This document shows positions 2,111 to 42,166 of a stretch of DNA of 64,000 bases, piece by piece. Under the pieces are notes generated by a model. That model saw only the letters and a list, made by a program, of their open reading frames with translations, did no database searches and had not been told where the DNA came from. The stretch is taken from the NCBI GenBank assembly GCA_012965045.1, contig DTSZ01000001.1, positions 812,024 through 876,023 of the forward strand. The letters are read 5' to 3'. Source of the DNA: Candidatus Saccharimonadota bacterium. GTDB lineage: Bacteria > Patescibacteriota > Saccharimonadia > Saccharimonadales > DTSZ01. How positions within the stretch are numbered: position 1 is the stretch's first letter; each line of letters begins with the position of its first letter. The translations under genes were made by a program, and so were the position numbers.

Positions 2111-2317
2111 ACCGTTAAGTCGCCTTTAACAGATACGCGCTCATATATTTATGCACAATATTTTGCACAATGTTAATGCTTAGTTAACACATGGTATACA
2201 GCCAAGAGTGTTATATGGAGGTATACAGTTTGCGGGAGTACGCAAAGTTCCTTTCCATTAGTTGTCGAGGTGAAATTTTAAAAAACCTTTTTGGGTTTAA
2301 AGGAGGGATGCGTTTTT

Positions 2318-3382
2318 ATGAAACGTATTACACACCAACAAATACAAAAACTTGCCCAAAAAAATATTCATCCATCCGTAAGTATCTACATGCCACTGCT
2401 TGGAGATTACTACGACATTCGCGAAAGTGGTTTACGACTACTTAAGCAGGCTCGAGACAACTTAATGGACTTTGTCAGCTACGAAGAAGCTCGACAAATA
2501 TTAGCACCAGCTTATGAAGCAATGCACAATCGCAATAAGTGGGTCCACGAGGACTACGAAGGCGGCGCTGCGATGTTTATTGACGAGACAGGCGTAGAAA
2601 CCTATGCCTTCCCAGACATGGAGCGAGAGAGGGTCTACGTCGGTCACGGATTTGAAGTAGCTCCACTGTTCGAGCAGCTTGTGCAGCATGGTCGCTTCTA
2701 CACCTTAAGTATTACCTCGCGATTTGCCGAGCTATATTTAAATGACGTAAAGGGCAGTCATAAAAAAGTCCGTTTAACCAATAAGCGAGCCTTTGCCGAT
2801 AAGGGCGGGTCGCGTAATTTGTATTCAAAACGATTAGCTGGGGATACGTCGGCTTTTCCAAAGCGATATCTTTCGCAGCTAGACAAGGCAGTGCGAAAGG
2901 CAATAGAGGACAAGACTGCACCGCTCATAACTATTGGTTTACCAAAGGCCCAGTCAGCGTTTAGGTCAACTTCAAAATATGACTTGCTTATGCCAGACGG
3001 CGTTCAGGTTAACCCTGAGGCCGTGAAGCAGAGTGAAGTTGTTCAACGAGCAGCGCCAATTGCTCAACGGTTCTATGGTTACTACGAAAAGGCTGCGCAA
3101 GAAGAGTTTGCCCGTCGGCAAGCAACCGACCAGCCACATGTGGTCACTGGTATGCGACAAGTGCTCGAAGCACTCCGAGAAGGCAAGGTTCGCACACTAT
3201 TTATCGACCCCAAAAAAGCTGTGTGGGGAGAGCCACTCACAAAAGCCATTCATACAAAACGGCAAAGGGGTGATGAAAATTTAACAAATCTGGCGGTTCG
3301 AAGAGCACTCAACTCAAAGGCCGAGATATTTCATCCGTCAGTAGATAATCCAAAATTAGTGAGTGCAATACTTCGCTATTAG
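2318..3382 (+). CDS. bacterial archaeo-eukaryotic release-factor-like (baeRF/eRF1-like) protein
   Basis: ATG at 2318 sits 10 nt after AAAGGAGGG. The N-terminus MKRITHQQIQKLAQKNIHPSVSIYMPL matches the typical baeRF opening (xVSxYxPT). The C-terminus has LREGKVRTLFID, resembling the eRF1 C-domain. Confidence 0.45.
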   Translation: MKRITHQQIQKLAQKNIHPSVSIYMPLLGDYYDIRESGLRLLKQARDNLMDFVSYEEARQILAPAYEAMHNRNKWVHEDYEGGAAMFIDETGVETYAFPDMERERVYVGHGFEVAPLFEQLVQHGRFYTLSITSRFAELYLNDVKGSHKKVRLTNKRAFADKGGSRNLYSKRLAGDTSAFPKRYLSQLDKAVRKAIEDKTAPLITIGLPKAQSAFRSTSKYDLLMPDGVQVNPEAVKQSEVVQRAAPIAQRFYGYYEKAAQEEFARRQATDQPHVVTGMRQVLEALREGKVRTLFIDPKKAVWGEPLTKAIHTKRQRGDENLTNLAVRRALNSKAEIFHPSVDNPKLVSAILRY

Positions 3383-3396
3383 TCTTGTGATTAAGG

Positions 3397-3948
3397 CTAA
3401 AGGTCGTTGATCTGGTCTTGGAGTGCGCTGAGGTTGCTAAGTGCAGCCTCAGTTGCATTTAGAATCAACTGATCATCAACGCTTTTCTGTAACTCGTTGA
3501 GACTACTGATAGCAACCGTAATTGTATTAGACGAGATTGTTATGGCTTGGCTATTTAGGGTGCCAGATATCTCTGCTGAATCTAAACTTTCTCGAACATT
3601 ATCAAGCTTACGAACTGGGGCGTAGGTCAGTTCCGGGTAGTTTGTTGCTGCTAGTTGATACAGAGTGCCTAAATCGCTCGCTGTAATAGTCTTAATTGTC
3701 GCGGCTAGGTTAGTTACTGCAGGGGTCGTTTCGTAAGTTTGAATAATTTCGTGGGCTACCGTAGCCTGGTTTAAGCTTTCAAGTGCTTTTGTCATTTGCG
3801 GCTCGGTTGATTTTCCGCCAAGCAGCGCACTGGCCAACAACAACACAACACCCAAAACACCACCAACTATCGCAAACAGTATCAATATTCGCTGCTTAGA
3901 GTCTGCTTGGCGCGGTGCAGGGGTATTAAATTGTTGAAGCATATTCAT
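3397..3948 (-). CDS. membrane-anchored hypothetical protein
   Basis: 183-aa ORF with one N-terminal TM helix (ILILFAIVGGVLGVVLLLASALLGG) followed by a helical ectodomain. I recognised no family motif. Confidence 0.6.
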   Translation of the reverse strand: MNMLQQFNTPAPRQADSKQRILILFAIVGGVLGVVLLLASALLGGKSTEPQMTKALESLNQATVAHEIIQTYETTPAVTNLAATIKTITASDLGTLYQLAATNYPELTYAPVRKLDNVRESLDSAEISGTLNSQAITISSNTITVAISSLNELQKSVDDQLILNATEAALSNLSALQDQINDL

Positions 3949-4007
3949 GCACTAGAGTATAAAGCTAAAGCTTTTGTTTATGAAACATCAACTATAAAGT
4001 TGTTGGT

Positions 4008-4445
4008 ATGGAACAAAGTGAAACCTGCCCATTCGACTCAAAAGACACAATTGGCCCTGATCGAATTATTCGTGTTGGCTTAACTGTCATTAGTTTTTTA
4101 TCTGACCCAAAAATAACCGAAGCACATGTATTGGTTGTTCCGCGGCGTCATGTGGAGCCTCCGTACTCGTTTGCTAACAACGAAACGCTTGAGCGAGAGC
4201 ACGAAATTAGCCGATTACGCCGAATAATGCTGCGTACTGGTTTTGACGGTGTTGATGTTTTTCAAAAGTCTCGACCATTAGTTGCTCAAGGGCACAATGG
4301 CACAAAGGTAGATCATTATCACTGGCATGTTTTGCCAAGCCGGCGCGGAGATGAGCTATATGAAAGCCGACTGGACTGGAGCCAGAAACAACCACTCACA
4401 GAAGAAGATCTAGAGAAATGGATTCCAATTCTGCGAGATGAATAA
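4008..4445 (+). CDS. HIT-family nucleotide hydrolase/transferase
   Basis: Histidine-triad motif HYHWHVLP near the C-terminus, and VVPRRH earlier in the sequence. Confidence 0.75.
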   Translation: MEQSETCPFDSKDTIGPDRIIRVGLTVISFLSDPKITEAHVLVVPRRHVEPPYSFANNETLEREHEISRLRRIMLRTGFDGVDVFQKSRPLVAQGHNGTKVDHYHWHVLPSRRGDELYESRLDWSQKQPLTEEDLEKWIPILRDE

Positions 4446-4486
4446 ATTACTGTAGATAGCCGCTCAGGTGTAGACTAGAGATATAT

Positions 4487-6205
4487 ATGGACGCTGTTTC
4501 TGACATTAAAGCAAAGCTTGCACTCGAGGATGTTGTAGCAGACTACCTGGAGCTTAAACGTTCTGGCAGCAACTTAAAGGCCTTAAGTCCGTTTAGCCAA
4601 GAAAAAACTCCAAGTTTTATGGTGAGTCCTGCTAAACAGATTTGGCACGACTTTAGTTCGAATAAAGGTGGCGACATGTTCACGTTTATTCAAGAGGTTG
4701 AAGGCGTTGAGTTTAAAGAAGCCCTAGAGCTGTTAGCACGTAAGGCTGGTCTTAATTTAGACGACTATCAAACAAAACGTGGACCAGGGCGAGAGGTAAA
4801 AAAACAATACGAACGAGCACTAAATTTGAGTGCTCGCTTTTACCAAGAACAATTGATACATAATAAAGCAGCCCTCGATTACGTCACTAAAAAGCGTGGT
4901 TTTAATAAACAATCGATTATTGATTTTAATATTGGTTACGCACCAAACAAAACAGATGCACTGTCAAAATACCTACTGTCCAAAGATATTGATACAGAAA
5001 CTATCGTCAAAAGCGGTTTAGCTGTTGAGCGTCGGGGCCGTTTGGTGGATATGTTTAGAGGCCGGGTATTGGTTGCGTTAGCAGATAGATCTGGCAGCCC
5101 AATTGGGTTTACTGGTCGTCAGCTAATTGATGGCGATGGACCAAAGTACATTAACACCGCACAAACTATTTTGTACGACAAGAGTCGTCATGTCTTTGGC
5201 TTACATCTTGCGAAAGATGCCATACGAAAACAGGATTTAAGTGTACTTGCAGAAGGAAACCTTGATGTAGTTAGCGCTCATCAAGCTGGTTTTAAAAATG
5301 TAGTAGCAACCGCTGGAACAGCGTTAACAATCCAGCAGTTGAAGTCGCTCAAACATCTTTCAAAGAATATTGCATTGGCATTTGACGGTGACGAAGCGGG
5401 AGTACGAGCAACAATTCGGGCAATACCGCTGGCACAGGGTGAAGGAATAACTTTGTATGTGCTAAATATTCCAAAGGGCAGTGACCCAGACGACATAATT
5501 CAAAATAATCCTGCAGATTGGGAAGAAATTGTTACAAGCAAGGTGTATGCCCCAGAATGGTTACGAATTTACTATCTTGACCAATATGATTTAAAAACCG
5601 CTCAGGGTAAAAAACTGTATGCAGATGCAATGATGAATTTATTGTTATTTCTTAAAGATCCAGTTGAGCAAGAGCATTATTTGGATGTTGTAGCTAAAGA
5701 TATTAAATCCTCAAAAGCAGCAGTGGCAGAGCGGTTTTCGAACTTTTCTCGCTCACCAAAAAAGCCCAAAAAACCAATTAAAACCAGTACGGTTGCTACG
5801 CCGCCGCGCCAAGGAGTAGTGGCGAATGATCTGTTAGCGCTGAGCTTGCGATACCCAGCGGCACGGGCGGTGCTACAGCCGTTAAGCGAAGACGTGTGGC
5901 AAACAGAACCACAACGAGCTGTATTTACGGTTTTGCAAAACAGCAACAAACTGGCCGATCAACTAGAGTCAGAATTGAAGGAACACGATAATTTTGTTAA
6001 AGTACTACAGTTAATTGCTGAGCAGCGATACGATGACTGGCGAACAGCTGACGTAATAGTCGAAGCCGACCAACTTTCACTCAGCCTAAATGAACTCAAA
6101 TACAAGCAAAACAAAACAACAATAACCGAACAAATTCGCGCAGCAGAAGAGCGTGGAGACTGGGATACAGCAAAAGAATTGCTTGAACAGTGGCAAGATA
6201 GTTAA
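4487..6205 (+). CDS. dnaG: DNA primase DnaG (zinc-ribbon ligands substituted)
   Basis: EKTPSF motif, TOPRIM region ([10 protein letters not shown]...AFDGDEAG) and the classic position immediately upstream of rpoD. Confidence 0.9.
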
Positions 6206-6213
6206 GGAGTTAT

Positions 6214-7383
6214 ATGCCGGCAAAGAAGAAACCAACTACAAAGAAGTCAGATGATAAAAAGTCCAAAGCAAAAGCCAAGGCAAGTGCAACTAAAGCTAAA
6301 AAAGCTGCACTAAAAAAAGAGGATTTACTAGCCGCAAAAAAAGAACTTTTTGAGCGAGCCAAAAAAGACGGTGAAATTCACCAAAAAGAAATTTTTAACC
6401 TTATCCCCGACACCGAAGCCAATGTTGAAATTTTAGACAGCCTGTATTCGGACTTAGTCGACGGCGACATAACCATTCTAAGCGCCGACAGCGATGACGA
6501 AAGTATTGATGACATTGAAGAGCAGGCGAAAAACGATAAATACTTAGATGACATTTCTGATGACTCGGTTCGTTTGTACCTGCGTGAGATCGGTAAAATT
6601 CCATTGCTTACTGCAGAAGAAGAAGTTACCCTAGCTCGCCGAGTCCAAAAAGGCGACAAAGTTGCCAAAGACGAAATGGCCGAGGCAAACATGCGATTAG
6701 TGGTTTCAATTGCTAAACGCTATGTCGGACGTGGTTTGGATTTGCTGGATTTGATTCAAGAAGGAAACACCGGTCTACTACGGGCAGTTGAAAAGTTTGA
6801 CCCAGAAAAAGGGTTTAAATTCTCTACCTACGCCACGTGGTGGATCCGCCAAGCTATCACTCGAGCCATCGCCGACCAGGCCCGAACTATCCGAATACCA
6901 GTACACATGGTAGAAACTATCAACAAACTATTGCGTACCCACCGTCGCATGACTCAAGAACTTAACCGCGAACCAACCAACGAAGAGCTTGCCAAGGAGC
7001 TTGAAATCGAAGTCGACAAAGTTGAACACATCATGAAAATCAAGCAGGACATTAGCTCACTTGACGCTGCTGTGCGTGACGACGAAGAAGACTCAGTACT
7101 TGGTGACTTTATCGAAGACGAGGATACACCGAGCCCGACTGAAAGCGCGACTACTCAATTACTAAAAGAACACGTTAATGAAATGCTTAGCTACTTAAGC
7201 CCGCGTGAACAAAAAATCCTACGTATGCGTTTTGGCCTCGAGGATGGAAAAACCCATACACTTGAAGAGGTTGGCACAGAGTTTGGTGTTACTCGTGAAC
7301 GTATTCGTCAGATTGAAGCAAAAGCCCTCGCAAAACTACGCAAGCACCGCGACGCATCTAAAATTTCGGATTACATAAACTAA
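6214..7383 (+). CDS. rpoD: primary RNA polymerase sigma factor RpoD
   Basis: Regions 1.2-4.2 are present. Motifs include [27 protein letters not shown] and the region 4.2 sequence [20 protein letters not shown]. The N-terminal tail is lysine-rich. Confidence 0.95.
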
Positions 7384-7385
7384 CA

Positions 7386-7952
7386 ATGATATTCGGATTA
7401 TCTGGCACCAACGGCGCAGGTAAAGACACAGTTGCAGAGATTCTACGTGACAATTATGGCTACTTGTTTATTTCGGCTACTGATATTCTCCGTGATGAAG
7501 CTCGCAAAAGGGGTTTAGATGTTTCGCGGAAAAACCTTCGCGATATAAGCGCTGAATGGCGGCGTGAATTTGGTATGGGAGTATTGATTGACAGAGGACT
7601 AATTGAATACGAAAAAGTACAGAGTCAGTACGAGGGCTTTGTTATTTCGAGCTTACGCCACCCTGCCGAAGCCGATGCTATACATGCTGCAGGAGGCAAA
7701 GTTATTTGGGTAGATGCTGACCCGCAACTGCGATACCAGCGCGTGCAGTCTGCTGACCGCGGTCGGGCTAGTGAAGACAAGATAAGTTTTGAAGAATTTT
7801 TAGCTCATGAGAAAAAAGAAATGAACGTTGGCGGTGACGCGGCTACCTTGAAAACAGCTGCCGTTAAAGAGAAGTCTGATGTAACACTACTGAACGAAGA
7901 CGATGGCATAGAGGCGCTTAAAAGCAAACTTGCCTCCATGCTGGAAATGTAA
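7386..7952 (+). CDS. P-loop nucleotide/nucleoside-monophosphate kinase-like protein (CoaE/dNMP-kinase-like)
   Basis: Walker A motif GLSGTNGAGKDT at the N-terminus, with the ~190-aa size typical of small kinases. The substrate is not inferable. Confidence 0.55.
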   Translation: MIFGLSGTNGAGKDTVAEILRDNYGYLFISATDILRDEARKRGLDVSRKNLRDISAEWRREFGMGVLIDRGLIEYEKVQSQYEGFVISSLRHPAEADAIHAAGGKVIWVDADPQLRYQRVQSADRGRASEDKISFEEFLAHEKKEMNVGGDAATLKTAAVKEKSDVTLLNEDDGIEALKSKLASMLEM

Positions 7953-8031
7953 TTCAATTTAAAACTAACAACATTGTTCTATATAATATAAGTGTGAATA
8001 ATTCCATAACCAACGTGTTGCTGGTGGGTGT

Positions 8032-8493
8032 ATGAGCGAAACTGCTATTCCTAATCCAGAACAGAGCGGATCTGGAAGATCTTTTGAAGAAAATTTAGAC
8101 CTAATTCGCAGCCGTTTGATGATAGACAAAAAAGATGCCCGCTGGAGACATATCAAGGCTCATTTTAGCGGCAGCCTTGAAACTGACATTAATGATCAAG
8201 AGCAAGAATTTTTTGATGTGATGACAATGATAGGTCAGCGATGGGTTTTTGCGTCGCATAGGTATCTAAACCCAACACCGGTGCAGCACGATACTCTTGG
8301 ACTGCTATGTGGTGTGGTGAGACGGCCAAGTAATGCAGGTAGTGAAAACGAATCATGGAGCACTCAAATGATGGAATTAAAAGATGTATTTACGTATGTT
8401 CAACGCAAGCACGATGTAGAGCTCGGTGATGTAATAGCCGAGTATTTGCACGCCATTGATAGCTTCGCCACCATATTTGAAGAAAAACTATAG
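8032..8493 (+). CDS. hypothetical protein
   Basis: 153-aa ORF with an ATG start, lying between the kinase-like gene and the second sigma gene. No motif recognised. Confidence 0.5.
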   Translation: MSETAIPNPEQSGSGRSFEENLDLIRSRLMIDKKDARWRHIKAHFSGSLETDINDQEQEFFDVMTMIGQRWVFASHRYLNPTPVQHDTLGLLCGVVRRPSNAGSENESWSTQMMELKDVFTYVQRKHDVELGDVIAEYLHAIDSFATIFEEKL

Positions 8494-8558
8494 CCAGTAA
8501 TGATCACCCTCAAAGCTCATGCTTGCCTGAGCAACGGGTGGCTGCGTAGTATTAATAA

Positions 8559-9740
8559 ATGCCAGAACTGCCCCAAATAAACAGCCCAGAAGGCAGCGAA
8601 TCTTCTGAGCCGCTGGATTTCCATGAGCGGAACCTACTACTGTTCGAAACATATATACCTGCAAAGGATCTTATACAAACCATCCAGGAAGATCCTGGTA
8701 TCTATGACCAGCTTGGTGATAGCGACAGGCGCTTATTTGAGCATGGCAAGCAAGCGTATGAAGATTTAATTCATGGCAATACTGGCTTGGTAGTTTTCCA
8801 CGCAAATAGACACAAAGTCTCACTAGAAGAACGTGATGAATTAATTCAGATCGGCATGATCTCATTAATTGAAGCGGTGCAAGATTTTGATCCCGATCTT
8901 GGCTATAAATTTTCTACATTCGCAACGTCAAAAATTAGACCTGCGTTAGCACATGCAAGAAATGAAAAATTTAGTCCTTTGAGTCTCCCTAGACAGCTAC
9001 GCGCAGATATTATTGCATTGCGTGCTGCTTCTCGGGAGATAAACGATTACCACGGCAGGCAACCGACCACAGAAGAACTTAGTCTAGCGACTGGTTTTTC
9101 TGAAGATAAGATTCAAAAGCTGGAAAGAATAAAAATTGAAGTCCGAGCACTATCGCTAGATAAAAGAATGTCCGACGAAGCACGATCAAAGACGTTAGGC
9201 GAAATGGTAATTGCAAGCTCAAACGCTGAAGACGACGAGTTACAGCAACGGGTTGGCCAGCTATTAGAAGATAAATTATCTCAGCTATCAGAACGTGACC
9301 GCACCATAGTTGAATTACGACTTGGTATCAACGACAGGCCTGTGACGTCGCTGCGCAGTATCGGCGATATTGTCGGGCTAACACGACAGGGCGTGAAAAT
9401 AGTTTCAGATCGCTTCACTTTAGCAATAAGTAAGGTGCTCGAATCAGAATTTGGTCCAGTGGCAGATGTAGCAGACACTACTCGAAAGATGACGGTAAAA
9501 ATCCGCGGCAGAAAACACGAACCATTGGATGTGAGTCAAGCTGGGTTTAGTGAAAAACTTGCAGACCTATCCGACCGACAAAAAAAATTGATCTGGCTAT
9601 TTTTTGATCAAGAAACTGGTGAACAGATTCGGACTCCAGGCGAAGTGCACGAACTTCTTGGCGTAGACGAGGATAAGGCGCCATCGGCCCGGTCATTACG
9701 GACGTACCTGTATGAAATACGCAGTGAATTCAAGACATAG
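8559..9740 (+). CDS. divergent sigma-70-family protein with a degenerate region 2.3/2.4 and an extra C-terminal HTH-like segment
   Basis: Region 2 reads DELIQIGMISLIEAVQDFDPDLGYKFSTFATSKIRPAL. Region 4 reads LSERDRTIVELRLG...IGDIVGLTRQGVKIV. An additional ~100 aa contains LSDRQKKLIWLFF...TPGEVHELLGV. Confidence 0.75.
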   Translation: MPELPQINSPEGSESSEPLDFHERNLLLFETYIPAKDLIQTIQEDPGIYDQLGDSDRRLFEHGKQAYEDLIHGNTGLVVFHANRHKVSLEERDELIQIGMISLIEAVQDFDPDLGYKFSTFATSKIRPALAHARNEKFSPLSLPRQLRADIIALRAASREINDYHGRQPTTEELSLATGFSEDKIQKLERIKIEVRALSLDKRMSDEARSKTLGEMVIASSNAEDDELQQRVGQLLEDKLSQLSERDRTIVELRLGINDRPVTSLRSIGDIVGLTRQGVKIVSDRFTLAISKVLESEFGPVADVADTTRKMTVKIRGRKHEPLDVSQAGFSEKLADLSDRQKKLIWLFFDQETGEQIRTPGEVHELLGVDEDKAPSARSLRTYLYEIRSEFKT

Positions 9741-9793
9741 TCAGTTTATGCTTATGCTAGACATTGTCGAGCTGTGGGTGTTTATTTATATCA

Positions 9794-11206
9794 ATGAATA
9801 TCGAAGCTTCGCCACAACAACCTAAACAGGATAATTTTGCCGGTAAAGACCGATTTATTAGTTTTATGGCAGACGTTTTGGGCGTTGAAGAAGAATCATT
9901 GCAGGATTATTATTCTGAACCTGAGCAGGCAGTCCAAGCACTTGAAATCATCGGAAAGGCGAAGTTGGCAGCAGTAAGCACACGAGAAAGCAGCTGCGAC
10001 GTTGCGGGTGTTGTTGCCAAGCATATTGGCATTGGAAGAGAAGAAAAACTCGCATATTCTGAGTTCTATCACGGATTCGGCTATGCAAGTGCTAACTCTG
10101 CATGTGCAGCGGCGTACCAGTACAAAAAACGAGCACCGAAGTATCTAGCAAGTGTCCTACCATATTCAGATCTCAAAGATCAGTCTTTAAATTTTTCCGA
10201 TAGGCCAAAGAGGAACAACATCACCAGAAACAATGGCCATAAATTACCAGGCCCAAGCAAGTCACGCCAAAAAAGGCGAAGCACAAACACGAGTAGTGGG
10301 GAGATTCGGAATGGTGTAGCTCAGGATCTTCTTGATATTTATTTTTCAGATATTGGTAAGCATGAATTACTAACTGCCGACGAAGAAGTGCAACTAGCAA
10401 AACAAATAGAAGCAGGACGGGCAGTTAAAGAAGAAGTTAAAGACGTGACTGTTCTCACCCCGCAGCAGCATGCGACTCTCAAGCAAGCAGATATGGCTTT
10501 TGAGCGTTTCGTAGTCGCAAATCAGCGTCTTGTAATTAATATTGCTGCAAAGTTTTCTAAACGCACATCTATGGAGCTTGGTGAGCTCATTCAAGAGGGC
10601 AACCTGGGGCTGCACCGAGGTGTTGAAAAGTTTGATTGGCGACGTGGGTATAAATTCTCTACCTACGCTACATGGTGGATCCGACAAGCTATTCAACGAG
10701 CCATCGCCAGCCAAAGTAGACTAATTCGATTACCTGTCGCAGTGCATGACAAGTCCATAAAAGTAAGAGCAGCACATAACAGACTATTAACCGAAACTGG
10801 CCAAGAACCAACCGATCAAGAGCTTGCGATTGCAACTCGATTAACTCCAGAGCAAGTCGCAGCGGTTCGTAATGTTGAACCTAAAGTAAGCTCACTAGAT
10901 GCCAAAGTTAAACCAAGCAGCGATTCAGCAGAAATGTATGGCTTTAGGCCTGATGATGGCCCAACACCAGAGGAGGAAGTCGTTATTTCTCAATTAACTG
11001 CAGAGGTCCATAAAGCACTAAACACACTCGACGAACGATCGCGATATATTATCAAAGCTCGATACGGCTTAAATGGAAAGAAGAGGTCGCGCGACAGTCT
11101 TGGTGAAGAACTAGGAACTAGCAGAGAAGCAATTAAAAAAATTGAGATTAGGGCTCTAAGACGGTTGTCGCAACACGCACCAGATTTGCGAGCGTATGTG
11201 GCTTGA
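9794..11206 (+). CDS. sigma-70-family factor, primary-like (group 1/2) with a unique N-terminal domain
   Basis: Motifs [31 protein letters not shown], the region 1.2 sequence DLLDIYFSDIGKHELLTADEEV, and a region 4 HTH. The track start at 9764 is TTG; I prefer the ATG at 9794, but the start is uncertain. Confidence 0.85.
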   Translation: MNIEASPQQPKQDNFAGKDRFISFMADVLGVEEESLQDYYSEPEQAVQALEIIGKAKLAAVSTRESSCDVAGVVAKHIGIGREEKLAYSEFYHGFGYASANSACAAAYQYKKRAPKYLASVLPYSDLKDQSLNFSDRPKRNNITRNNGHKLPGPSKSRQKRRSTNTSSGEIRNGVAQDLLDIYFSDIGKHELLTADEEVQLAKQIEAGRAVKEEVKDVTVLTPQQHATLKQADMAFERFVVANQRLVINIAAKFSKRTSMELGELIQEGNLGLHRGVEKFDWRRGYKFSTYATWWIRQAIQRAIASQSRLIRLPVAVHDKSIKVRAAHNRLLTETGQEPTDQELAIATRLTPEQVAAVRNVEPKVSSLDAKVKPSSDSAEMYGFRPDDGPTPEEEVVISQLTAEVHKALNTLDERSRYIIKARYGLNGKKRSRDSLGEELGTSREAIKKIEIRALRRLSQHAPDLRAYVA

Positions 11207-11226
11207 GGAAGCTGTATACTTAAAGT

Positions 11227-13791
11227 GTGAACAAACCTAAAAAACTAGTAGTAATTGACGGTAAATCGGTTTTTTATCGGGGCTACTATGCTATGCCAAA
11301 TCTTAGTTTGGCCGACGGCACTCCAACCGGTGGTGTTTATGGGTTTGCGGTTTTGGGGCTTGAAATACTTAAAAAAATGCAGCCAGACTATGTGGTGGTT
11401 GCGTGGGACAAATCTAAAACTAACATCCGGTCGCGCTTAAAGCTGTATCCCGAATATAAGGCTAATCGAAAACCCATGCCCGACGACATGCGGGCTCAAA
11501 TTCCACTTGTCCGTAAATTACTCGACGCCTTTAGTTGGGATTTATTAGAGTGCGACGACTACGAAGCCGACGATATTATGGGGACGCTTGCCAAACAAGT
11601 GTTTGAAGAGGATGGCACCGAAACAATTATGGTTACCAGCGACCTCGACATGTTGCAATGCGTCAATGAACACACGACTGTAGCAGCTCTTAAAAAAGGT
11701 CTTAAAAATGTCGTATATTTTGATCCTAAAAATTTCCGTGAAACCTATAAAGTAACTGCTGAACAATTTATTGATATAAAGGCACTTAAAGGTGATGCCA
11801 GCGACAACATCCCAGGGGTCAGAGGCGTCGGCGAAAAAACAGCTATTAAGTTGATTGACCAATACAACTCGCTGGATGGAGTCTATGAACATATAAACGA
11901 GCAAAAAGGGGCACTAAAAACTAAGCTGGAAGCCGACAAAGACATGGCTTATTTAAGCCGAAAACTGGTAACCATCATGCTAGATGCGCCAGTTAAATTG
12001 GATCGGAAAAAGGCTGCCATCGACAACGTTAAACCGGCTGATATTAAGGCGCTATTTGATGAGTATCGTTTTAGGTCACTTATAAACCAAATACCACAAA
12101 GTTGGCAGCAAAGTGACGATGACATTGAAACGAACTCTATTAAAACAACAATGCAGTTTAAAAAAATGTACTCATTGGACGACCTCACTGACAAAAAAAC
12201 GCTCGCCATGTTTATTCATGACGACGAAGTATGGGTCAGCCCTAATAAAGATACCGTGTACCTATTTGACCCAAAACAACTGAGCAAACTAACTAGTCTA
12301 CATTCGGTGATCGGTCACGACGTAAAAGAAGTATTAAAGCTTTTTGCTCGCCATGCAGCGCCAATGCCAGATGTAGAACACGACACTCGTGTGGGTGGAT
12401 TTTTATTGAACGGCTTACTGCGCGAACAAGACTTAAGCAGTCTAATTGGCGGAGAGGTTGATCAGTCTGAGCCGACGCAAGTACTGACTGCTATTTGGCA
12501 ATTATATGAACAGCAAAACAAAGAACTACAGCAACTACCAAAAGTACAGAAAATCGCCCAGTCAATGGAGTGGCCAATAATAAAAGTACTCGCTCGCATG
12601 GAGCATGAGGGGGTTTTTCTAGACACTGAGTATTTAGAGCACATGTCTGACAAGCTTGAGGATCAAATAACTGACATTGAGCAAGAAATTTATGGACATG
12701 CCGACACAGAATTTAATGTAAATAGCCCCGGGCAGTTAGCTGACGTCTTATATGGCACTTTAAATATTCCAACTGATTTTATAAAAAAGACAAAAAGTGG
12801 GTTTTCTACTGCTGCGAGTGAACTCGATAAAATAAAAGACCTGCATCCAATTGTTGCGCTAATTTTTAAGTACCGCGAATGGACAAAACTTAAGAGCACC
12901 TATGTTGATGCGCTACCGAAGTTAATCGATCAGCATTCACGTTTGCACACAACGTATTCTTTGTCAGTCGCAGCTACAGGTCGGCTGAGTAGCCATGACC
13001 CGAACTTACAAAACATTCCCATTCGCACTGAGTTGGGTAAAACAATTCGCCATGCGTTTAAGCCGGCTACAGGGAATGTGTTCATTAATGCAGACTACTC
13101 ACAATTTGAACTACGTTTAGCCGCAGCTCTTGCCCAAGAACCAGCAATGATCGATGCGTTTAAAAAAGACACTGATATCCACCAGGCAACAGCCGCTCAA
13201 ATGTATGGCATTCCGGTAAACGAAGTGTCTAAAGAGCAGCGCTATAGTGCAAAAGCCGTTAATTTTGGAATTATGTATGGCCAGGGACCGCATGGGCTCA
13301 GTCAAGGCACGGGTATGACTATGGCCGAGGCTAAAAAATTTATAGAAAAGTATTTTGAAATACGACCTAATATCAAAAATTACATTGAACAAATAAAACA
13401 GCAGGCTAAGGACGAGGGATTTGTAGAGACATGGTATGGTCGCCGTCGACCAACGCCAGACGTACAGTCGTCTAACTTTATGGTGCGAGAGGGTGCTTAC
13501 CGCGCAGCAGTAAATATGCCAATGCAGGGTACGGCAGCCGACATTATGAAACTGGCAATGATCAATATCCAAGAGTATTTGGACCAAAAAGTGACAGATG
13601 GAACGTGGAAAATGGAAGATGCTCCAAAAATGCTGCTCCAAGTGCATGACTCAGTGTTGATTGAATGTAGAGAACAAGACGCTGAAGCCGTAGCGAAAAA
13701 AGTCCAAGAAATTATGGAAAATACAAATACCGAAATGCCCGTAACATTTAAGGTTGACTATGCGATCGGCAAGACGTGGGGCGAGATCTAA
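11227..13791 (+). CDS. polA: DNA polymerase I
   Basis: GTG start. The N-terminal 5'-nuclease domain has GVRGVGEKTA. The pol domain has RLSSHDPNLQNIP, AVNFGIMYG and QVHDSVLIE. The middle domain lacks an obvious DxE ExoI motif, so proofreading is probably inactive. Confidence 0.95.
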   Translation: MNKPKKLVVIDGKSVFYRGYYAMPNLSLADGTPTGGVYGFAVLGLEILKKMQPDYVVVAWDKSKTNIRSRLKLYPEYKANRKPMPDDMRAQIPLVRKLLDAFSWDLLECDDYEADDIMGTLAKQVFEEDGTETIMVTSDLDMLQCVNEHTTVAALKKGLKNVVYFDPKNFRETYKVTAEQFIDIKALKGDASDNIPGVRGVGEKTAIKLIDQYNSLDGVYEHINEQKGALKTKLEADKDMAYLSRKLVTIMLDAPVKLDRKKAAIDNVKPADIKALFDEYRFRSLINQIPQSWQQSDDDIETNSIKTTMQFKKMYSLDDLTDKKTLAMFIHDDEVWVSPNKDTVYLFDPKQLSKLTSLHSVIGHDVKEVLKLFARHAAPMPDVEHDTRVGGFLLNGLLREQDLSSLIGGEVDQSEPTQVLTAIWQLYEQQNKELQQLPKVQKIAQSMEWPIIKVLARMEHEGVFLDTEYLEHMSDKLEDQITDIEQEIYGHADTEFNVNSPGQLADVLYGTLNIPTDFIKKTKSGFSTAASELDKIKDLHPIVALIFKYREWTKLKSTYVDALPKLIDQHSRLHTTYSLSVAATGRLSSHDPNLQNIPIRTELGKTIRHAFKPATGNVFINADYSQFELRLAAALAQEPAMIDAFKKDTDIHQATAAQMYGIPVNEVSKEQRYSAKAVNFGIMYGQGPHGLSQGTGMTMAEAKKFIEKYFEIRPNIKNYIEQIKQQAKDEGFVETWYGRRRPTPDVQSSNFMVREGAYRAAVNMPMQGTAADIMKLAMINIQEYLDQKVTDGTWKMEDAPKMLLQVHDSVLIECREQDAEAVAKKVQEIMENTNTEMPVTFKVDYAIGKTWGEI

Positions 13792-13869
13792 AAGCCTACG
13801 GATTGCGTGACTGTACGCTGTCTTACGTTTGGTACAATTAAGTAAATATAACGGGTGGATGGAGGGTTC

Positions 13870-14565
13870 ATGGCTTTAGGAGAAAGTTTAAAGGAAGAAT
13901 TAGCAGTAAGTCTGTATGACATTGGTGTAATTAAGTTCAGTGATTTTGAATGGACTCTGAAAAGTGGCAGAAAATCGCCAGTTTACTACAACCAGCGTGG
14001 CATTGGTTCATGGTCAGGCTCTTCAAACCGTGAACGATCCTTACAGGCAAGGGATTTATTAATTGAAGGTATATCTGAAGCTATTGATGACATGGTAGAT
14101 GAGGAGGGGGGCTATGATCATCTGTATGGCCTTCCGCAATCGGCTACACAACTAACTGGAATGATAGCCGAAAGAAGAAACGATTCAGTACTTTGGGGAC
14201 GAGTTGGGAAAAAAGATTACGGAGCACATGCACAATTAGAAGGTAATTATGGCGAGGGGCAATCTGTTGTTGCGATTGATGATGTCATTACAAATGCCGA
14301 CTCAAAACTAGAAGCAGCGGAAAGCATGGATGCCGCAGGTCTTGATGTTAATGGATTTGTAGTGGTAATGGATCGACAAGAAGGTGGGCAAGAAACACTT
14401 AAGGCTGCTGGGTATACTCTAGTCAGCGTATTGAACATGGCAGAAACAGTCAGGATGTTACGAGAGAATGACCGCATAGGCAATGTTGAGTTTGAATGGA
14501 TGGCTCAATACGGCAGAACCCTCATTCAAGATGGAATTGTTGAACGTTATCCAGTTACTGCATAG
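13870..14565 (+). CDS. pyrE: orotate phosphoribosyltransferase
   Basis: LKSGRKSPVYYN and the PRPP-binding motif VVAIDDVITNADS. The start could be ATG 13870 (after GGAGG) or GTG 13855. Confidence 0.75.
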   Translation: MALGESLKEELAVSLYDIGVIKFSDFEWTLKSGRKSPVYYNQRGIGSWSGSSNRERSLQARDLLIEGISEAIDDMVDEEGGYDHLYGLPQSATQLTGMIAERRNDSVLWGRVGKKDYGAHAQLEGNYGEGQSVVAIDDVITNADSKLEAAESMDAAGLDVNGFVVVMDRQEGGQETLKAAGYTLVSVLNMAETVRMLRENDRIGNVEFEWMAQYGRTLIQDGIVERYPVTA

Positions 14566-18203: not shown

Positions 18204-19538
18204 ATGGACCCATCTAACCAACAGCCACAAACTCAGCAGCCAGCAAATCTGACTCCTAAGCAGCAGATTGCTGAACAAATTAAAGCTGCAGCGAACATTG
18301 TTGTTTCTACTAATAAACAACCTACTCTAGACGAAATCACCACTGTTATTGGGTTTACTCACATGCTGCAGGCAATGGGCAAACATGCTACAGGAGTTAT
18401 TAGTACCACCTTGCCAAAGGCCGTAGAGTTTTTAAACCCGAAAGCCGTAATAGAAGGCGACACAAAGCGTCTACAAGATTTTGTCGTCTCACTCCATAAA
18501 GACAAAGCTGACAAATTACGCTATAAGGTTGATGGCGACCATGTAAAAATATTTATTACGCCGTACAAAACAGTTATTTCAGAAAAAGACTTTAGTTTTA
18601 CCGCTGGCGATTACAACATAGATACTGTTGTGGCTGTTGGTGTTATGCAGCGCAATGACGTTGATGACGCTTTACTAGTGAGCCCAAGAATCCTTGGCGA
18701 CACTAAAGTTGTTACTCTGAATAAGGGTGAAGCGGTCAGTACTTTTGGTGCTGTTAATTGGAGTGAACCACAAGCTGTATCGGTTGCCGAAATGGCAATG
18801 AGTATTAGCGAATCCCTTGGCAGTGGCTTACTTAAACCAGAAAGCTCACAAGCATTACTGACAGGGTTGGTGTCTGCAACAGACCAATTTGGTAACGATT
18901 TAACTACTCCTAAAATTATGACAATGGCAGCACAATTAATGGCTGCTGGAGCTGATCAACAAGTTATTGTTAAAAATCTACAAGACGCTAATCACGTTAA
19001 AGTGGTGAGTAACGCGGCTGACCAACCTGAGCCGGTTGCCGAAAAAACAAACGAACAACCGACTAAGGCACACGCTAAGCCAGTTAAAAATGAACAAGCT
19101 CAACCTGAGCAAAAGTCAGACGCGAGTGAGCAAAAGCCAGAGCCAAAAGAAGAAAAAACAGTTAGCGAGGTTGCTCGCGAAGAACAACCTGCGTCTGAGC
19201 CAGCAAAAAAAGAACAGCCAAAAACAAACAGCGACACTAAATCAGAGCCACACGTAAACACGTCACCAGAACTCCCTACCTTAAAATCAGTACTTGAAAA
19301 TAAGGCAGTCCCAACTCAAGAACAAGCAAGCCAAAAGCCAGCTTCGGAATCCGCACATAAAACCGCTACAGATAACACAGGTGTAGACAGCGCACGTGCG
19401 GCAGTAAAGCAGGCCGAAGATGCTCGGGCTCCGAAAAATCCAGAACCTACCCAAAGCTTGAACGCGCAAAATGTTGAAAACAACAGTTCTGGCGACATCG
19501 AAATCGACCACAACGGCGATATCCTTTTACCACAGTAA
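18204..19538 (+). CDS. degenerate DHH/NrnA-like protein with a long K/E/P/Q-rich low-complexity C-terminal half
   Basis: LLTGLVSATDQFGNDLTTPKIMTMAAQLMAAGADQQ resembles the NrnA GIxTDTGxF...Gad region. The DHH catalytic residues are not evident. A DHH gene near truB is a known synteny. Confidence 0.4.
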   Translation: MDPSNQQPQTQQPANLTPKQQIAEQIKAAANIVVSTNKQPTLDEITTVIGFTHMLQAMGKHATGVISTTLPKAVEFLNPKAVIEGDTKRLQDFVVSLHKDKADKLRYKVDGDHVKIFITPYKTVISEKDFSFTAGDYNIDTVVAVGVMQRNDVDDALLVSPRILGDTKVVTLNKGEAVSTFGAVNWSEPQAVSVAEMAMSISESLGSGLLKPESSQALLTGLVSATDQFGNDLTTPKIMTMAAQLMAAGADQQVIVKNLQDANHVKVVSNAADQPEPVAEKTNEQPTKAHAKPVKNEQAQPEQKSDASEQKPEPKEEKTVSEVAREEQPASEPAKKEQPKTNSDTKSEPHVNTSPELPTLKSVLENKAVPTQEQASQKPASESAHKTATDNTGVDSARAAVKQAEDARAPKNPEPTQSLNAQNVENNSSGDIEIDHNGDILLPQ

Positions 19539-38003: not shown

Positions 38004-39632
38004 ATGTCAGAAAGTACTCACAACCCTACAAATGTCGAAACCTCTCTGAAGGACGTGAGTGACTATTTTAGCCAGGTGTCTAATAGCGTAATCACAGGGA
38101 GCGACAAATTTCCAGATGGCTACGATGGCATCGCGTCTGAATTACGTGGTATAAGAAAAAGACTTCAAGAAGATACAGAAGCAAATGGGCATGATATAGC
38201 TGCTTATTACTCTGTATTCAAGCAAGAGAAAAATCTGATGAACACTGTGTTTGGTAAAGAACCCAAATCTACTGATTTCGAAAGATTTTTGGGCTACTTC
38301 TCTGATGACAAAATTGCGACTGCACTTACAGCCGAAGATGCACAAGGAGCACTTCACCAAGATTTGCTTAGTACCTTAGACCAAGCACGCAGAGATAGTC
38401 AAAGATATGCTGCTGGTAAAATAATTTCGATTCTTCAAATTCAGCATGGCAAGGATCAGGCGGCTGATCTCATTACCGACCCAGGAACAGAGAGAAGCGA
38501 ATTCGACTGTGCAGTACGGGAAATGCTGGTACATAAGACAACTATAGAAGCTATGATGCACAAGGATATTACTTATGAGGTTGGTGTTTCTTGGGGTGAA
38601 CGGCAAAGGGTTGTTCAGACCTGGTTTGAGAATATAGTAGTGTCAGCATACTCTATGGAGCCAGAAGAAGCACAAAAGTATGCTTTTACCGTTTCCAGAC
38701 GTGGTTATGCGGAGAATATTGCGCAGTTTATTTCACATATGGACCATTTCGGCCCTAAGAGTGTTAAAGCACTGACTACAGAAACTGGTATCTACAGCTT
38801 AGAAAATTACACAGTAGAACAATTAGAGCGCATGGTGCGGTTGTCTGATGACCCTCATGCACTGGCCGAGGAATTGAGTAATCACGATGTAACTGTATAT
38901 ATGGCGAACGCTCTTGGTGATCACAATGGTGTGCTCGGAGATGGCCCGGGATTATTTGATTCAAATGGGCGTACGCTGTTTTTTGAAATTAGTTCTCCAA
39001 CAGACATATACCGCCATATGCTACGGTTAGAAAAAGTTGGCATACAGCCTTCAACATTTGTATTAGCCGCTCACGGTGCCGAGGGACAGTTAAGTATTAG
39101 CGACAGAAGTAGTCCTGAAAGACGTCGAAGATTCATTGCAACCATTTCAGGTAAACAAATGGTCGATGCTTTCAACGCAGATCACCACGAATCTGGAGAT
39201 TTTGGTATAGCTATTCGCGATTCAAAGTCTTTAGGTAGATTAACAGAAGAATTTATGCAGCCAAGTCGTGCAATAGATGATCCAGAAGAAGCTCAAGGCA
39301 AAAAGAGAATAATAATTAAAGCTTGTAGGGCAGCTACTAGCACAGACTCGTACAACAAAGCTAAAGATGGTACAAAAGTAAGTTTAGGTGAAGATTCTAT
39401 TGTATCCGTAATTGCTAGGCAGATATGTGAGCTTGGGGGCGATAATGTTGAAGTGTATGGAGCAGATACATCTATTCAAATGAGAAAGAATGAATCAGGT
39501 AGCGGAGTTGAATACACCGCTTTGTCTAAAGAGAGAATACGAGAACATACTGACGTCGTCAGGGCCCAAGTCCAGGATGGTGCTACGTCGTATGACAGCA
39601 TTGATGAGATTCTGCTCACTAAAAAGATTTAG
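38004..39632 (+). CDS. hypothetical 542-aa cytoplasmic protein; the C-terminal half has a caspase/CHAT-like His...Cys arrangement
   Basis: Preceded by a 150-nt very AT-rich spacer. A strand-HG (STFVLAAHGAEGQL) is followed ~85 aa later by a strand-C (KRIIIKACRAATS). Confidence 0.6.
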   Translation: MSESTHNPTNVETSLKDVSDYFSQVSNSVITGSDKFPDGYDGIASELRGIRKRLQEDTEANGHDIAAYYSVFKQEKNLMNTVFGKEPKSTDFERFLGYFSDDKIATALTAEDAQGALHQDLLSTLDQARRDSQRYAAGKIISILQIQHGKDQAADLITDPGTERSEFDCAVREMLVHKTTIEAMMHKDITYEVGVSWGERQRVVQTWFENIVVSAYSMEPEEAQKYAFTVSRRGYAENIAQFISHMDHFGPKSVKALTTETGIYSLENYTVEQLERMVRLSDDPHALAEELSNHDVTVYMANALGDHNGVLGDGPGLFDSNGRTLFFEISSPTDIYRHMLRLEKVGIQPSTFVLAAHGAEGQLSISDRSSPERRRRFIATISGKQMVDAFNADHHESGDFGIAIRDSKSLGRLTEEFMQPSRAIDDPEEAQGKKRIIIKACRAATSTDSYNKAKDGTKVSLGEDSIVSVIARQICELGGDNVEVYGADTSIQMRKNESGSGVEYTALSKERIREHTDVVRAQVQDGATSYDSIDEILLTKKI

Positions 39633-40501: not shown

Positions 40502-42166
40502 CTATTCAGATCTGCGAGAGTAATATTCTGGTGACACAGTAGCTGGCCGCCAGTCGTTTTCTGTAGGCATACTTGTTCGTGCACTTAGAGCCTCGCTGAC
40601 TATTTCTCGGTGTTCATGTGCTGTTGTAACGGGATAGGCGAGTGCTAAATTATACGTTGAGTCTGTGTAAACTCTCGGTATATTCAGAACTTGTAGGTTA
40701 TTTGAGTGTTGGGGGCTATTCGTTTGTGTAGTTTGTATAATATGCGCAATATCTGTTTCAGATTCATTTTCGGATTGTTCTGCTGGTGTAAATTCTGCAG
40801 CAGCAGTCCGTAGATCAAGAGACACAAACCTAATATCTCCGGATTCATTAAAAGTTTGTACTGCAATATACTCCACATTTTCGTCAGTTAATGAGGTGAG
40901 TGGTGTCTCTCGCGCAGGATCTTTAAGTTTAATGATAGGGTTTTGAATAATTATTATTCCTGAATTTGAGTCTAAGTCATCCAGAGATTGATCATTCTGG
41001 TGTGATTCGGTCAGCTCAGTATCTGGCTGTACAATCAGTGCACCCTGTAAAAATAAAATACCATTATCGGATCGGATTGAATCTACAACATTATCAGTTA
41101 CATCGTGGCCTGATACCATAGAAGGGATAGCGCCACTTGCTTGGATGGCGTCTCTTAGCTTAGATTCATAATAGGTATATGCTTTTTCACCATACCACTG
41201 CTCTGGCCCCTGTTCTTGCCTTTGAGCCTCTGTTGTATCACGAATAAAGGTAGGGAAGTTTGGTATAAGCATTTGCACTCTCTGACTCATAAGCTCTAAC
41301 TTATAGTGAAAAGGCGACCCGTGGTGAGGGTCGTTGTCTTGCGGAAGCCCATACTTAATTAAAAATTCAAGAGACTTGGCTCTATCTTCAGCTACATTAA
41401 TCATTGCGTACGGAGAAGCAAACTCTTGGGTGGGGCTAACCATGAAATATTCGGGAGAGAGGACAGCGTAGCTTTTATTTCTGTAAGCGCTGAAACCCAA
41501 ATAATCCACTGTATTCATATTCGCAAAGTCCGCATCCGCCCAAAAATCACTCTCATTTGATTCATGGTCTACGCATAAGACATCATCAAGTGCGTGACTG
41601 AGTTCATGGTCAATAGCTTCAGTTTCTTCGTCCAATATTAAGGATATAGAGTGTACCTCTCCAAGGTAGTAGCCACCGACTGAGCCATCTATTGATTTAA
41701 CTATTCTGATTGTGTCTACCATGCGCGGTAAAATTGATTGAGGGTATTTACTAAGTGATTTCACTAAGCCACTTATAAACCATCTATATCTATAGTTGTC
41801 TCTACCGGAAGCCTCTCCGGAGAAATCACTATCTTCAAAGTATTCTTCTTGGTAAGAACCTTGGTTATTAGTTTGGTCCGCAATAGAAAATTGCACATCA
41901 TAATATTCTGTCAGATCAATTAATAAGTCAGGCAGGTCTTCCAGACCCCCATGGACATACTCTGCCCATAAGTCGTTCATAAATTCAGTATGATTGTCTG
42001 AAATAGCTTCTGGTTCAATGTCGGGTGAAAGTGAGTCGCAGTCAGCAGCAGATACTGCAGTACTGTGCTGAGTTTCTTCTTGAGCGGACGCTGCCGTAGC
42101 GCCCAGCATTAATGCAGCGCTCAGGCCAGTAGCGATTATTTTCTCTTTAGTTTTTTGTTCAAACAT
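40502..42166 (-). CDS. secreted HExxH zinc metalloprotease (possibly M34/ATLF-like)
   Basis: Signal peptide MFEQKTKEKIIATGLSAALMLGATAASAQE. The motif IDHELSHALDD is followed by candidate third-ligand Glu sites (TQEFASPYA, NVAEDRA). Confidence 0.6.
   Translation of the reverse strand: MFEQKTKEKIIATGLSAALMLGATAASAQEETQHSTAVSAADCDSLSPDIEPEAISDNHTEFMNDLWAEYVHGGLEDLPDLLIDLTEYYDVQFSIADQTNNQGSYQEEYFEDSDFSGEASGRDNYRYRWFISGLVKSLSKYPQSILPRMVDTIRIVKSIDGSVGGYYLGEVHSISLILDEETEAIDHELSHALDDVLCVDHESNESDFWADADFANMNTVDYLGFSAYRNKSYAVLSPEYFMVSPTQEFASPYAMINVAEDRAKSLEFLIKYGLPQDNDPHHGSPFHYKLELMSQRVQMLIPNFPTFIRDTTEAQRQEQGPEQWYGEKAYTYYESKLRDAIQASGAIPSMVSGHDVTDNVVDSIRSDNGILFLQGALIVQPDTELTESHQNDQSLDDLDSNSGIIIIQNPIIKLKDPARETPLTSLTDENVEYIAVQTFNESGDIRFVSLDLRTAAAEFTPAEQSENESETDIAHIIQTTQTNSPQHSNNLQVLNIPRVYTDSTYNLALAYPVTTAHEHREIVSEALSARTSMPTENDWRPATVSPEYYSRRSE

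Follow-up and report, generated by a model that had tools for sequence, protein, structure and literature searches.

A divergent sigma-70-family factor of Saccharibacteria without the tryptophan dyad probably carries a group-3-style melting surface

Group 3 sigma factors are described as containing sigma2, sigma3 and sigma4 but no region 1.1, with determinants for the -10 and -35 elements that are distinct from those of groups 1 and 2 (Paget 2015, PMC4598750). In the open complex of Pseudomonas aeruginosa sigma28, published in 2026, the tryptophans W433 and W434 of sigma70 are replaced by I79 and R80, and the -11A is still flipped and stacked on the equivalent of Y430 (PMC12784957). The basic residue at the position of W434 is conserved in group 3 and contacts -12G, and R82, the equivalent of R436, is important for transcription (PMC12784957). 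Here we compare these systems with sigX (name given here), a divergent sigma-70-family gene of Candidatus Saccharimonadota that lies between rpoD and polA in the window, i.e. the whole stretch of 64,000 nucleotides analyzed (contig DTSZ01000001.1). We consider it probable that sigX encodes a functional, fast-evolving and lineage-restricted alternative sigma of a few Saccharibacteria, with a melting surface of the group 3 style.

The segment at issue, FATSKIRPAL, is in frame with the ATG at 8559 and lies within DPDLGYKFSTFATSKIRPALAHARNEKFSP of the translated window. In a MAFFT alignment it shares its columns with the canonical motif of RpoD and of sigY (name given here), the sigma factors encoded on either side of sigX, as well as of E. 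coli RpoD and RpoS, and phmmer aligns it to the same motif of solved SigA chains. A preliminary description of this gene had presented it as a sigma-70-family paralog flanked by two canonical sigmas, with other residues in place of both tryptophans and of Gln437. Both alignments bear this out: the segment is homologous to region 2.3/2.4, column for column with the neighbours and with E. coli sigma70. The replacements are Y430 to Phe, W433 to Ser, W434 to Lys and Q437 to Pro, with T440 to Ala and R441 to His as further changes, and the equivalent of R436 is kept. Region 3.0 reads SPLSLPRQ in place of RTIRIPVH and region 4.2 reads TRQGVKIVS in place of TRERIRQIE. The Pfam Sigma70_r2 match of sigX ends at profile position 58 of 71, exactly at the FATSKIRPAL segment. 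That the protein lacks the aromatic residues of promoter melting, as had also been stated, holds for W433 and W434 but not beyond them, since position 430 is still aromatic as Phe and FDPDLGYKFST retains counterparts of F419, Y425 and F427. We compared sigX with the closest sigma-family relatives that were retrieved and in which the motif could be located. Of these 342 proteins, 335 carry W434, 309 carry W433 and 329 carry Q437, and Pro437 is confined to sigX and its two relatives. The replacements are therefore no chance fluctuation among the nearest sequence relatives. Against these, the motif of sigX is very unusual, but not against the sigma-70 family overall.

Indeed, the same columns read YAVQRIRGAM in E. 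coli FliA and FAVHWIKAEI in E. coli RpoH. A profile-guided scan of metagenomes yielded only ordinary group 3 sigmas, which we used as comparators. Some read FSTFATPTILGEI, FTTFAVPTITGEI and FSTFAAASIIGEL, and for all three tested the best match is the NCBIfam SigB/F/G model; one of them (L114) reaches 256.9 bits, above the cut-off of 234.35, and the others are fragments of 198-225 bits. Fragments of the FliA/WhiG type read FSTYAYIRIRGAV. Because group 3 sigmas carry the same replacements, and because of the sigma28 open-complex structure, group 3 alternative sigmas can be said to lack the dyad as a rule and to open promoters unaided, and its loss is no sign of a defect. The suggestion that such a sigma may not open DNA unaided finds no support in this comparison: FliA, RpoH and the SigB/F/G and FliA/WhiG types carry the same kind of replacements, and sigma28 melts DNA without the dyad. 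The inference had been too strong because the set of proteins compared was too narrow, comprising groups 1 and 2 only. Among the three roles proposed at the time (a decoy, an activator-dependent factor or a factor using an unusual -10 element) the evidence favours the last, and the decoy is unsupported, the replacement pattern being that of active group 3 sigmas. In itself, loss of the dyad is therefore no discovery. At the level of sequence, region 2.3/2.4 of sigX appears to follow the group 3 rather than the group 1/2 pattern, with Phe or Tyr at 430, a small residue at 433, Lys at 434, the R436 equivalent and no Gln at 437.

We wondered whether these replacements are shared by relatives. A word-indexed search of 5.8 billion proteins returned no relative above 33% identity, and its matches were all canonical YAxWWIRQ sigmas; word-indexed searches with sigX and with a three-member profile returned no further members and missed P0121. 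Only two full-length relatives whose match runs on over the C-terminal extension of sigX came out of an exhaustive HMMER search of 1.84 billion representatives: P0121 (377 amino acids (aa), 36% identity, E 1e-56, motif FATSKVKPSV) and P0123 (400 aa, 33% identity, E 4e-29, motif YAYSVITPRV). The sigX family comprises only three 50%-identity clusters among these representatives. Ser replaces W433 and Pro replaces Q437 in all three lineages, and Lys434 and Phe430 occur in two of them. The replacements are thus kept in relatives and are not a strain-specific lesion. Region 2.3 of P0123, DTAFTTYAYSV, resembles GTAFTTYAVQR of FliA. The exhaustive search also brought up two other proteins: P0122 (3581 aa), with four sigma-like stretches and a non-canonical region 2.3 reading HAFYIIRRMI, and P0141 (350 aa), an otherwise canonical sigma that reads YATHKIRRAM in region 2.3. 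A literature search returned nothing on alternative sigmas of Saccharibacteria.

Twelve contigs from several metagenomes carry the exact sigX protein, as does a Candidatus Saccharibacteria contig of 929,678 bp, and the nucleotide sequence is 100% identical in the four loci compared (L001-L004). These four derive from JGI samples with 'Mariner' and 'Lau' in their record names, from an ENA assembly and from an assembly of SRA data (Logan). Such identity suggests either a single clonal population that has been sampled widely or a common source. A scan of metagenome DNA for the pattern GY[KE]FSTFATSK gave no match, the window's own sequence included, so that the scanned collection lacks these samples.

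An allele with 99% identity to P0123 is encoded on a contig of 69.9 kb (GCA_964570275.1; L092 lineage), where the gene order is dnaG-rpoD-kinase-(polyprenyl synthase)-hyp315-sigX-sigY-polA, which is syntenic with the window. Identity between window and L092 is 76% for RpoD, 51% for PolA, 46% for DnaG, 43% for sigY, 41% for the kinase and 32% for sigX, and the guanine-cytosine (GC) content is 42.5% in the window and 55.5% on the L092 contig. The two sigX alleles of the P0123 lineage differ by 10 synonymous and 3 non-synonymous changes, a ratio of non-synonymous to synonymous rates (dN/dS) of ~0.10 that rests on these 13 substitutions. Pairwise identity within the family is 0.23-0.50 in the domains and 0.08-0.28 in the linkers, and GC content is uniform across the sigX locus. 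Going by the aligned sequences, sigX is a real gene, old, under constraint and evolving fast, conserved but very rare.

The architecture of sigX was assessed using Pfam and AlphaFold2. Pfam recognizes Sigma70_r2 (38.9 bits, cut-off 24; profile positions 2-58) and Sigma70_r3 (29.4 bits); the Sigma70_r4 match of 22.4 bits is just under its cut-off of 24.1 and aligns fully to region 4 of solved SigA. The AlphaFold2 model has a mean predicted local distance difference test score (pLDDT) of 80.6, with 93-98 over aa 21-130 of sigma2 and 80 over aa 131-140. After sigma3 it shows a sigma4 (aa 223-300) whose last element is a long helix; a linker without order then leads to a helical domain at aa 330-390. 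Foldseek places SigA chains on top (~290 columns, E 5e-12), and SigA is also the best match by sequence among solved structures (E 2e-25), with SigF and FliA far lower (E 1e-9 to 1e-8). Q97, G99, L103, F118, T120 and A122, as well as the region 2.2 equivalents of Q406, G408 and L412, are invariant in the family and 34 canonical sigmas. Pfam detected neither region 1.1 (r1_1) nor region 1.2 (Sigma70_r1_2) in sigX, although both neighbours have a region 1.2 match; the model nonetheless places an N-terminal helix (aa 21-44) on sigma2.

Approximately 110 residues lie beyond the end of the canonical sigma4. The corresponding segment matches Pfam Sigma70_r4_2 in P0121 (29.0 bits, cut-off 25.7) and in P0123 (20.9 bits). 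The extension of sigX itself gave nothing in Pfam and no significant BLASTP match to RpoD, so that its sigma4-like nature is visible only through the relatives and the model. Modelled alone, it forms a four-helix helix-turn-helix (HTH) domain (pLDDT 84.4, predicted template modelling score 0.73) whose Foldseek neighbours in the PDB are almost exclusively sigma region 4, with target-normalised TM-scores (template modelling scores) of up to 0.67. The block FDQETGEQIRTPGEVHELLG of this domain is among the most conserved of the family. In its recognition helix 5 of 14 residues are invariant in the three lineages (R378, S379, T382, I387, R388), compared with 1 of 18 in the canonical 4.2 recognition helix. 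From sequence and modelled structure, sigX is a sigma2-sigma3-sigma4-sigma4' factor, and its unusual feature is the extra domain, which is kept in all three lineages. A short, non-exhaustive full-text literature search returned nothing on a tandem region 4 or a second sigma4-like HTH.

How might such a factor work? With its matches to regions 2, 3 and 4, no r1_1 and modelled domains that agree, sigX has the layout of group 3, and its DNA-contacting residues differ from group 1/2 and resemble group 3. We propose that sigX binds core RNA polymerase (RNAP) through the conserved region 2.2 helix and that the flipped base equivalent to -11 would be captured in a retained pocket formed by the equivalents of F419, Y425, K426, F427, S428 and T429 together with Phe121. 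The upstream edge of the bubble would be held by Lys/Arg contacts in place of the tryptophan wedge, as in sigma28, and the -10/-12 element read by sigX is expected to differ from TATAAT. Because the canonical 4.2 helix is not conserved, upstream promoter recognition probably falls largely to the recognition helix of the extra C-terminal HTH.

Several observations weigh against this reading. Only the superfamily model TIGR02937 passes its NCBIfam cut-off for sigX (67.9 vs 42.9 bits), and all group-level models fail for all three family members. For sigX the group 1/2 models stay at 121.9 vs 384.5 (TIGR02997), 101.4 vs 354 (TIGR02393) and 92.5 vs 378.7 (TIGR02394), and the group 3 models at 90.6 vs 234.35 (SigBFG) and 90.4 vs 189.6 (FliA_WhiG). 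Across the family the ranges are 107-130 bits for TIGR02997 (384.5), 90.6-95.7 for SigBFG (234.35) and 60.7-90.4 for FliA_WhiG (189.6), and RpoH models are below their cut-off where listed (P0121: 67.5 vs 323.1). The family scores therefore lie somewhat nearer to the group 1/2 models, namely TIGR02997, than to SigBFG, and its group 3 character is one of architecture and motif resemblance, not of demonstrated ancestry. None of the group 3 sequences examined has Pro in place of Q437, a position that falls within the helix of region 2.4. In regions 2.2 and 3.0, sigX has E407 changed to Ile, N409 to Met and H455 to Gln, and the P0123 lineage does not have the Y425 equivalent. Statistics are thin, conservation being read from three lineages only, and the Foldseek matches of the small extra domain are not statistically significant (E 0.4-3). 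A search for a promoter motif of sigX found none: across the three lineages, the intergenic stretches that precede orf153 and sigX have no motif in common and show only sigma70-like AT-rich hexamers. The analysis shows homology, replacement at matching positions, conservation among relatives, synteny, signs of purifying selection and domain structure; formation of a holoenzyme, unaided melting, promoter specificity and a division of labour between the two sigma4-like domains are inferred from these.

A more far-reaching proposal, tentative and on the unlikely side, is that sigX founds a class of sigmas that have two domains of the sigma4 type. Here, the degenerate internal sigma4 would only anchor to the RNAP beta-flap, the conserved C-terminal sigma4, which resembles that of extracytoplasmic function (ECF) sigmas, would read an upstream or a second, more distal element, and the group-3-like sigma2 with Pro at the -12-reading position would melt an unusual -10. 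Along with other accessory regulators of the sigma or WhiB type, the family would then be subject to exchange at an rpoD-polA hot-spot of Saccharibacteria, possibly tied to episymbiotic life on Actinobacteria. A functional arrangement of two sigma4 domains would add to the ways by which sigma factors are known to read promoter DNA upstream.

It also seems unlikely that sigX depends on a partner, binding core and promoter while a second protein, either the product of the small upstream gene orf153 or a separate activator, completes melting or -10 recognition. The B. subtilis SigO-RsoA system is a two-subunit sigma in which a co-encoded small partner has a sigma2-like function. The same-strand position of orf153 66 bp upstream of sigX would fit such a model, as would the 138-aa gene directly upstream of the P0121 relative, to which orf153 is 32% identical (pairwise E 1e-10), the missing tryptophan wedge and Q437, and the undetected region 1.2. 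Against it, orf153 has no Pfam match, none sigma-like at E up to 10, and no PADLOC match; the pairing is not family-wide, an unrelated 315-aa gene taking the place of orf153 in the L092 lineage; and no partner is needed for melting by group 3 sigmas that carry equivalent replacements. Nothing in these sequences would support a complementing sigma2-like role, and orf153 may be a lineage-specific partner, co-factor or anti-sigma. It shares the motif IGQRW...Y[LI]NPTP with its counterpart (L091:158-574), and in two of the three lineages a gene of this kind thus immediately precedes sigX.

A sigma-derived DNA-binding regulator, i.e. a repressor or activator that acts through two sigma4-type HTH domains and is no longer an initiation factor, we regard as quite improbable. 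The tandem HTH domains, the C-terminal one strongly conserved, and the several region 2.2 residues off consensus are what this idea has in its favour; yet sigma2 is modelled with very high confidence, the Q406, G408 and L412 equivalents and the residues of the -11 pocket are kept, and conservation of sigma2 and sigma3 equals that of the HTH domains, which would be unexpected if only HTH DNA binding mattered. We see very little chance that sigX is a decoy that occupies core without initiating and so damps transcription, for example in host-free or stress states. Replaced residues at the canonical melting, -12, extended -10 and -35 contacts and a 4.2 recognition helix that is not conserved among relatives could be read this way, but the blocks expected to drift in a decoy are among the best conserved, namely FDPxLGYxFSTFATSK between sigX and P0121 and the C-terminal recognition helix across three lineages, and, as noted above, the replacements match those of active group 3 sigmas. 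Finally, a decaying duplicate of a neighbouring sigma or a strain-specific pseudogene, to which the status of sigX as the most divergent gene of the locus (32% vs 76% for RpoD) and its absence from closer relatives might have pointed, is essentially refuted by intact open reading frames (ORFs) of 377-400 aa with the same domain order in three lineages, the syntenic position, dN/dS of ~0.1, conservation that follows domain boundaries, flat GC, identical sequence on the 12 metagenomic contigs and only 27% identity to the neighbouring RpoD gene, which excludes a recent duplicate.

We therefore return to the reading of sigX as an alternative sigma and to the interval it occupies (Table 1). Saccharibacteria have tiny genomes and few regulators. 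Those with a nearer RpoD (82-89% identity) are without sigX, and their rpoD-polA interval holds other content: a 676-aa sigma in L095, a partial gene of >591 aa in L098, a 285-aa hypothetical and a WhiB-domain protein in L096, a 137-aa hypothetical in L099 and kinases only in L097. In the more distant L100 (RpoD 78%) the interval holds a 714-aa sigma together with a protein of 445 aa that combines sigma regions 1.2 and 2 with a WhiB domain at its C-terminus. Compared across the window (7386-11206), L092 and L095-L100, the interval varies with lineage and has zero to two additional sigmas of 470-714 aa, genes for WhiB-domain proteins or unrelated hypotheticals. By this comparison, sigX belongs to a set of accessory regulators that occupy a variable hot-spot, and it has been either lost often or exchanged; the variable sigma/WhiB-type cassette could mark lineage-specific control of a host-associated lifestyle.

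Table 1. Features of the rpoD-polA region and of the domains of sigX, in window coordinates
Feature	Coordinates	Strand	Basis or remark
dnaG	4487..6205	+	gene in window
rpoD, primary sigma factor, 389 aa	6214..7383	+	NCBIfam TIGR02393 RpoD_Cterm 365.8 bits, cut-off 354
Small nucleotide-kinase-like gene	7386..7952	+	directly after rpoD
Promoter-like site, sigma70-type, TTTAAA-18-TATAAT	7958..7987	+	upstream of orf153; weak evidence
orf153, 153 aa, function unassignable, possibly co-transcribed with sigX	8032..8493	+	66 bp upstream of sigX
sigX, 393 aa, divergent sigma-70-family gene	8559..9740	+	ORF; Pfam r2/r3/r4 matches
sigma2 domain of sigX, aa 21-137, including N-terminal helix aa 21-44 and conserved block FDPDLGYKFST	8619..8969	+	AlphaFold2
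Region 2.3/2.4 segment FATSKIRPAL, codons 121-130	8919..8948	+	aligned to sigma70 Y430-I439
sigma3 domain of sigX, aa 145-197	8991..9149	+	Pfam Sigma70_r3 aa 153-212; AlphaFold2 helices 145-165, 171-178, 182-197
Canonical sigma4 of sigX, aa 223-295; LSERD block conserved, recognition helix TRQGVKIVSDRF poorly conserved	9225..9443	+	Pfam Sigma70_r4 22.4 bits
Extra C-terminal sigma4-like HTH of sigX, aa 335-393	9561..9737	+	relatives' Pfam match, AlphaFold2 model
sigY, third sigma, canonical group-1/2-like motif	9764/9794..11206	+	immediately downstream of sigX
polA	11227..13791	+	follows sigY

The 445-aa protein of L100 (L100:13956-15293; JGI 3300053671, Ga0533587_0000001) reads FSTMAAWWIRQ and has its WhiB (Fe-S) domain where sigma4 is expected. 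WhiB proteins normally bind sigma4 of SigA. A fusion of sigma and WhiB is therefore odd, and its novelty may exceed that of sigX itself. In the same locus polA is followed by genes for a HATPase_c_2 protein and a DUF4325 protein, a putative partner-switching pair. The downstream sigma sigY (9794-11206) is 49-52% identical over ~300 aa to sigmas of Actinomycetota (metagenome-assembled genomes of Nitriliruptorales), compared with 43% to its syntenic saccharibacterial counterpart. This hints at a possible exchange of sigY with the host phylum, a lead drawn from a contig scan biased by its WWIRQAIQ pattern, which was flooded with Actinomycetota sigmas and recovered no Saccharibacteria loci.

The promoter-like site upstream of orf153 is the best consensus match in 3900-14000 (10 of 12 positions), a range in which the number of sigma70-type promoter-like sites is not above shuffled expectation. 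PADLOC gave only a weak generic sigma match to MzaA and no defence-system context. An eRF1-like (baeRF) gene lies upstream of dnaG (2291-3382), with a 183-aa ORF on the opposite strand between them; it occupies the same position in six of the seven related Saccharibacteria loci examined, was not seen in L092 and is present in two copies in L098. Elsewhere in the window, the large ORFs at 46901-51895, 38004-39632, 40502-42166 and 18204-19538, one of which encodes 1664 aa, had no Pfam match at E up to 0.001.

Set beside the known sigma groups, sigX shares features with several of them. With the group 1/2 factors (RpoD/SigA, the cyanobacterial RpoD type TIGR02997 and RpoS) it has its best sequence and fold matches and a full-length sigma3 with linker in common; it differs from them in scoring far below the family-model cut-offs and in having neither regions 1.1 and 1.2 nor Y430, W433, W434, Q437, T440, R441, H455 and the RERIRQ of region 4.2. 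The FliA/WhiG factors of the sigma28 type (TIGR02479) likewise have a basic residue at the W434 position and keep the R436 equivalent, and the P0123 lineage almost matches FliA in region 2.3 (TAFTTYA), but FliA has Gly where sigX has Pro437, no flagellar genes lie near sigX, and the extra C-terminal domain sets sigX apart.

ECF (group 4) sigmas such as ECF41 and ECF42 carry C-terminal extensions with SnoaL- or TPR-type regulatory domains. They resemble sigX in possessing an extra C-terminal domain, which in the sigX family matches the ECF-type Sigma70_r4_2; in contrast to them, sigX has a sigma3 and a sigma2 of the group 1/3 type, and its extension is a second sigma4-like HTH. SigB, SigF and SigG (TIGR02980) share with sigX the sigma2-sigma3-sigma4 layout without region 1.1, Phe at the Y430 position, the lack of Trp at 433 and 434 and of Gln at 437 (FSTFATPTILGEI compared with FSTFATSKIRPAL), and a small gene immediately upstream, as with rsbW and spoIIAB. 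They differ in that sigX has S-K-I-R-P in place of P-T-I-x-G, that its upstream gene encodes no HATPase_c anti-sigma kinase and that it has the extra sigma4-like domain. As far as sequence allows a placement, sigX fits the operational description of group 3 yet belongs to none of its known subgroups (FliA/WhiG, RpoH, SigB or the sporulation sigmas), and it defines a very small orphan sigma family whose best matches are to group 1/2 and whose melting region resembles group 3.

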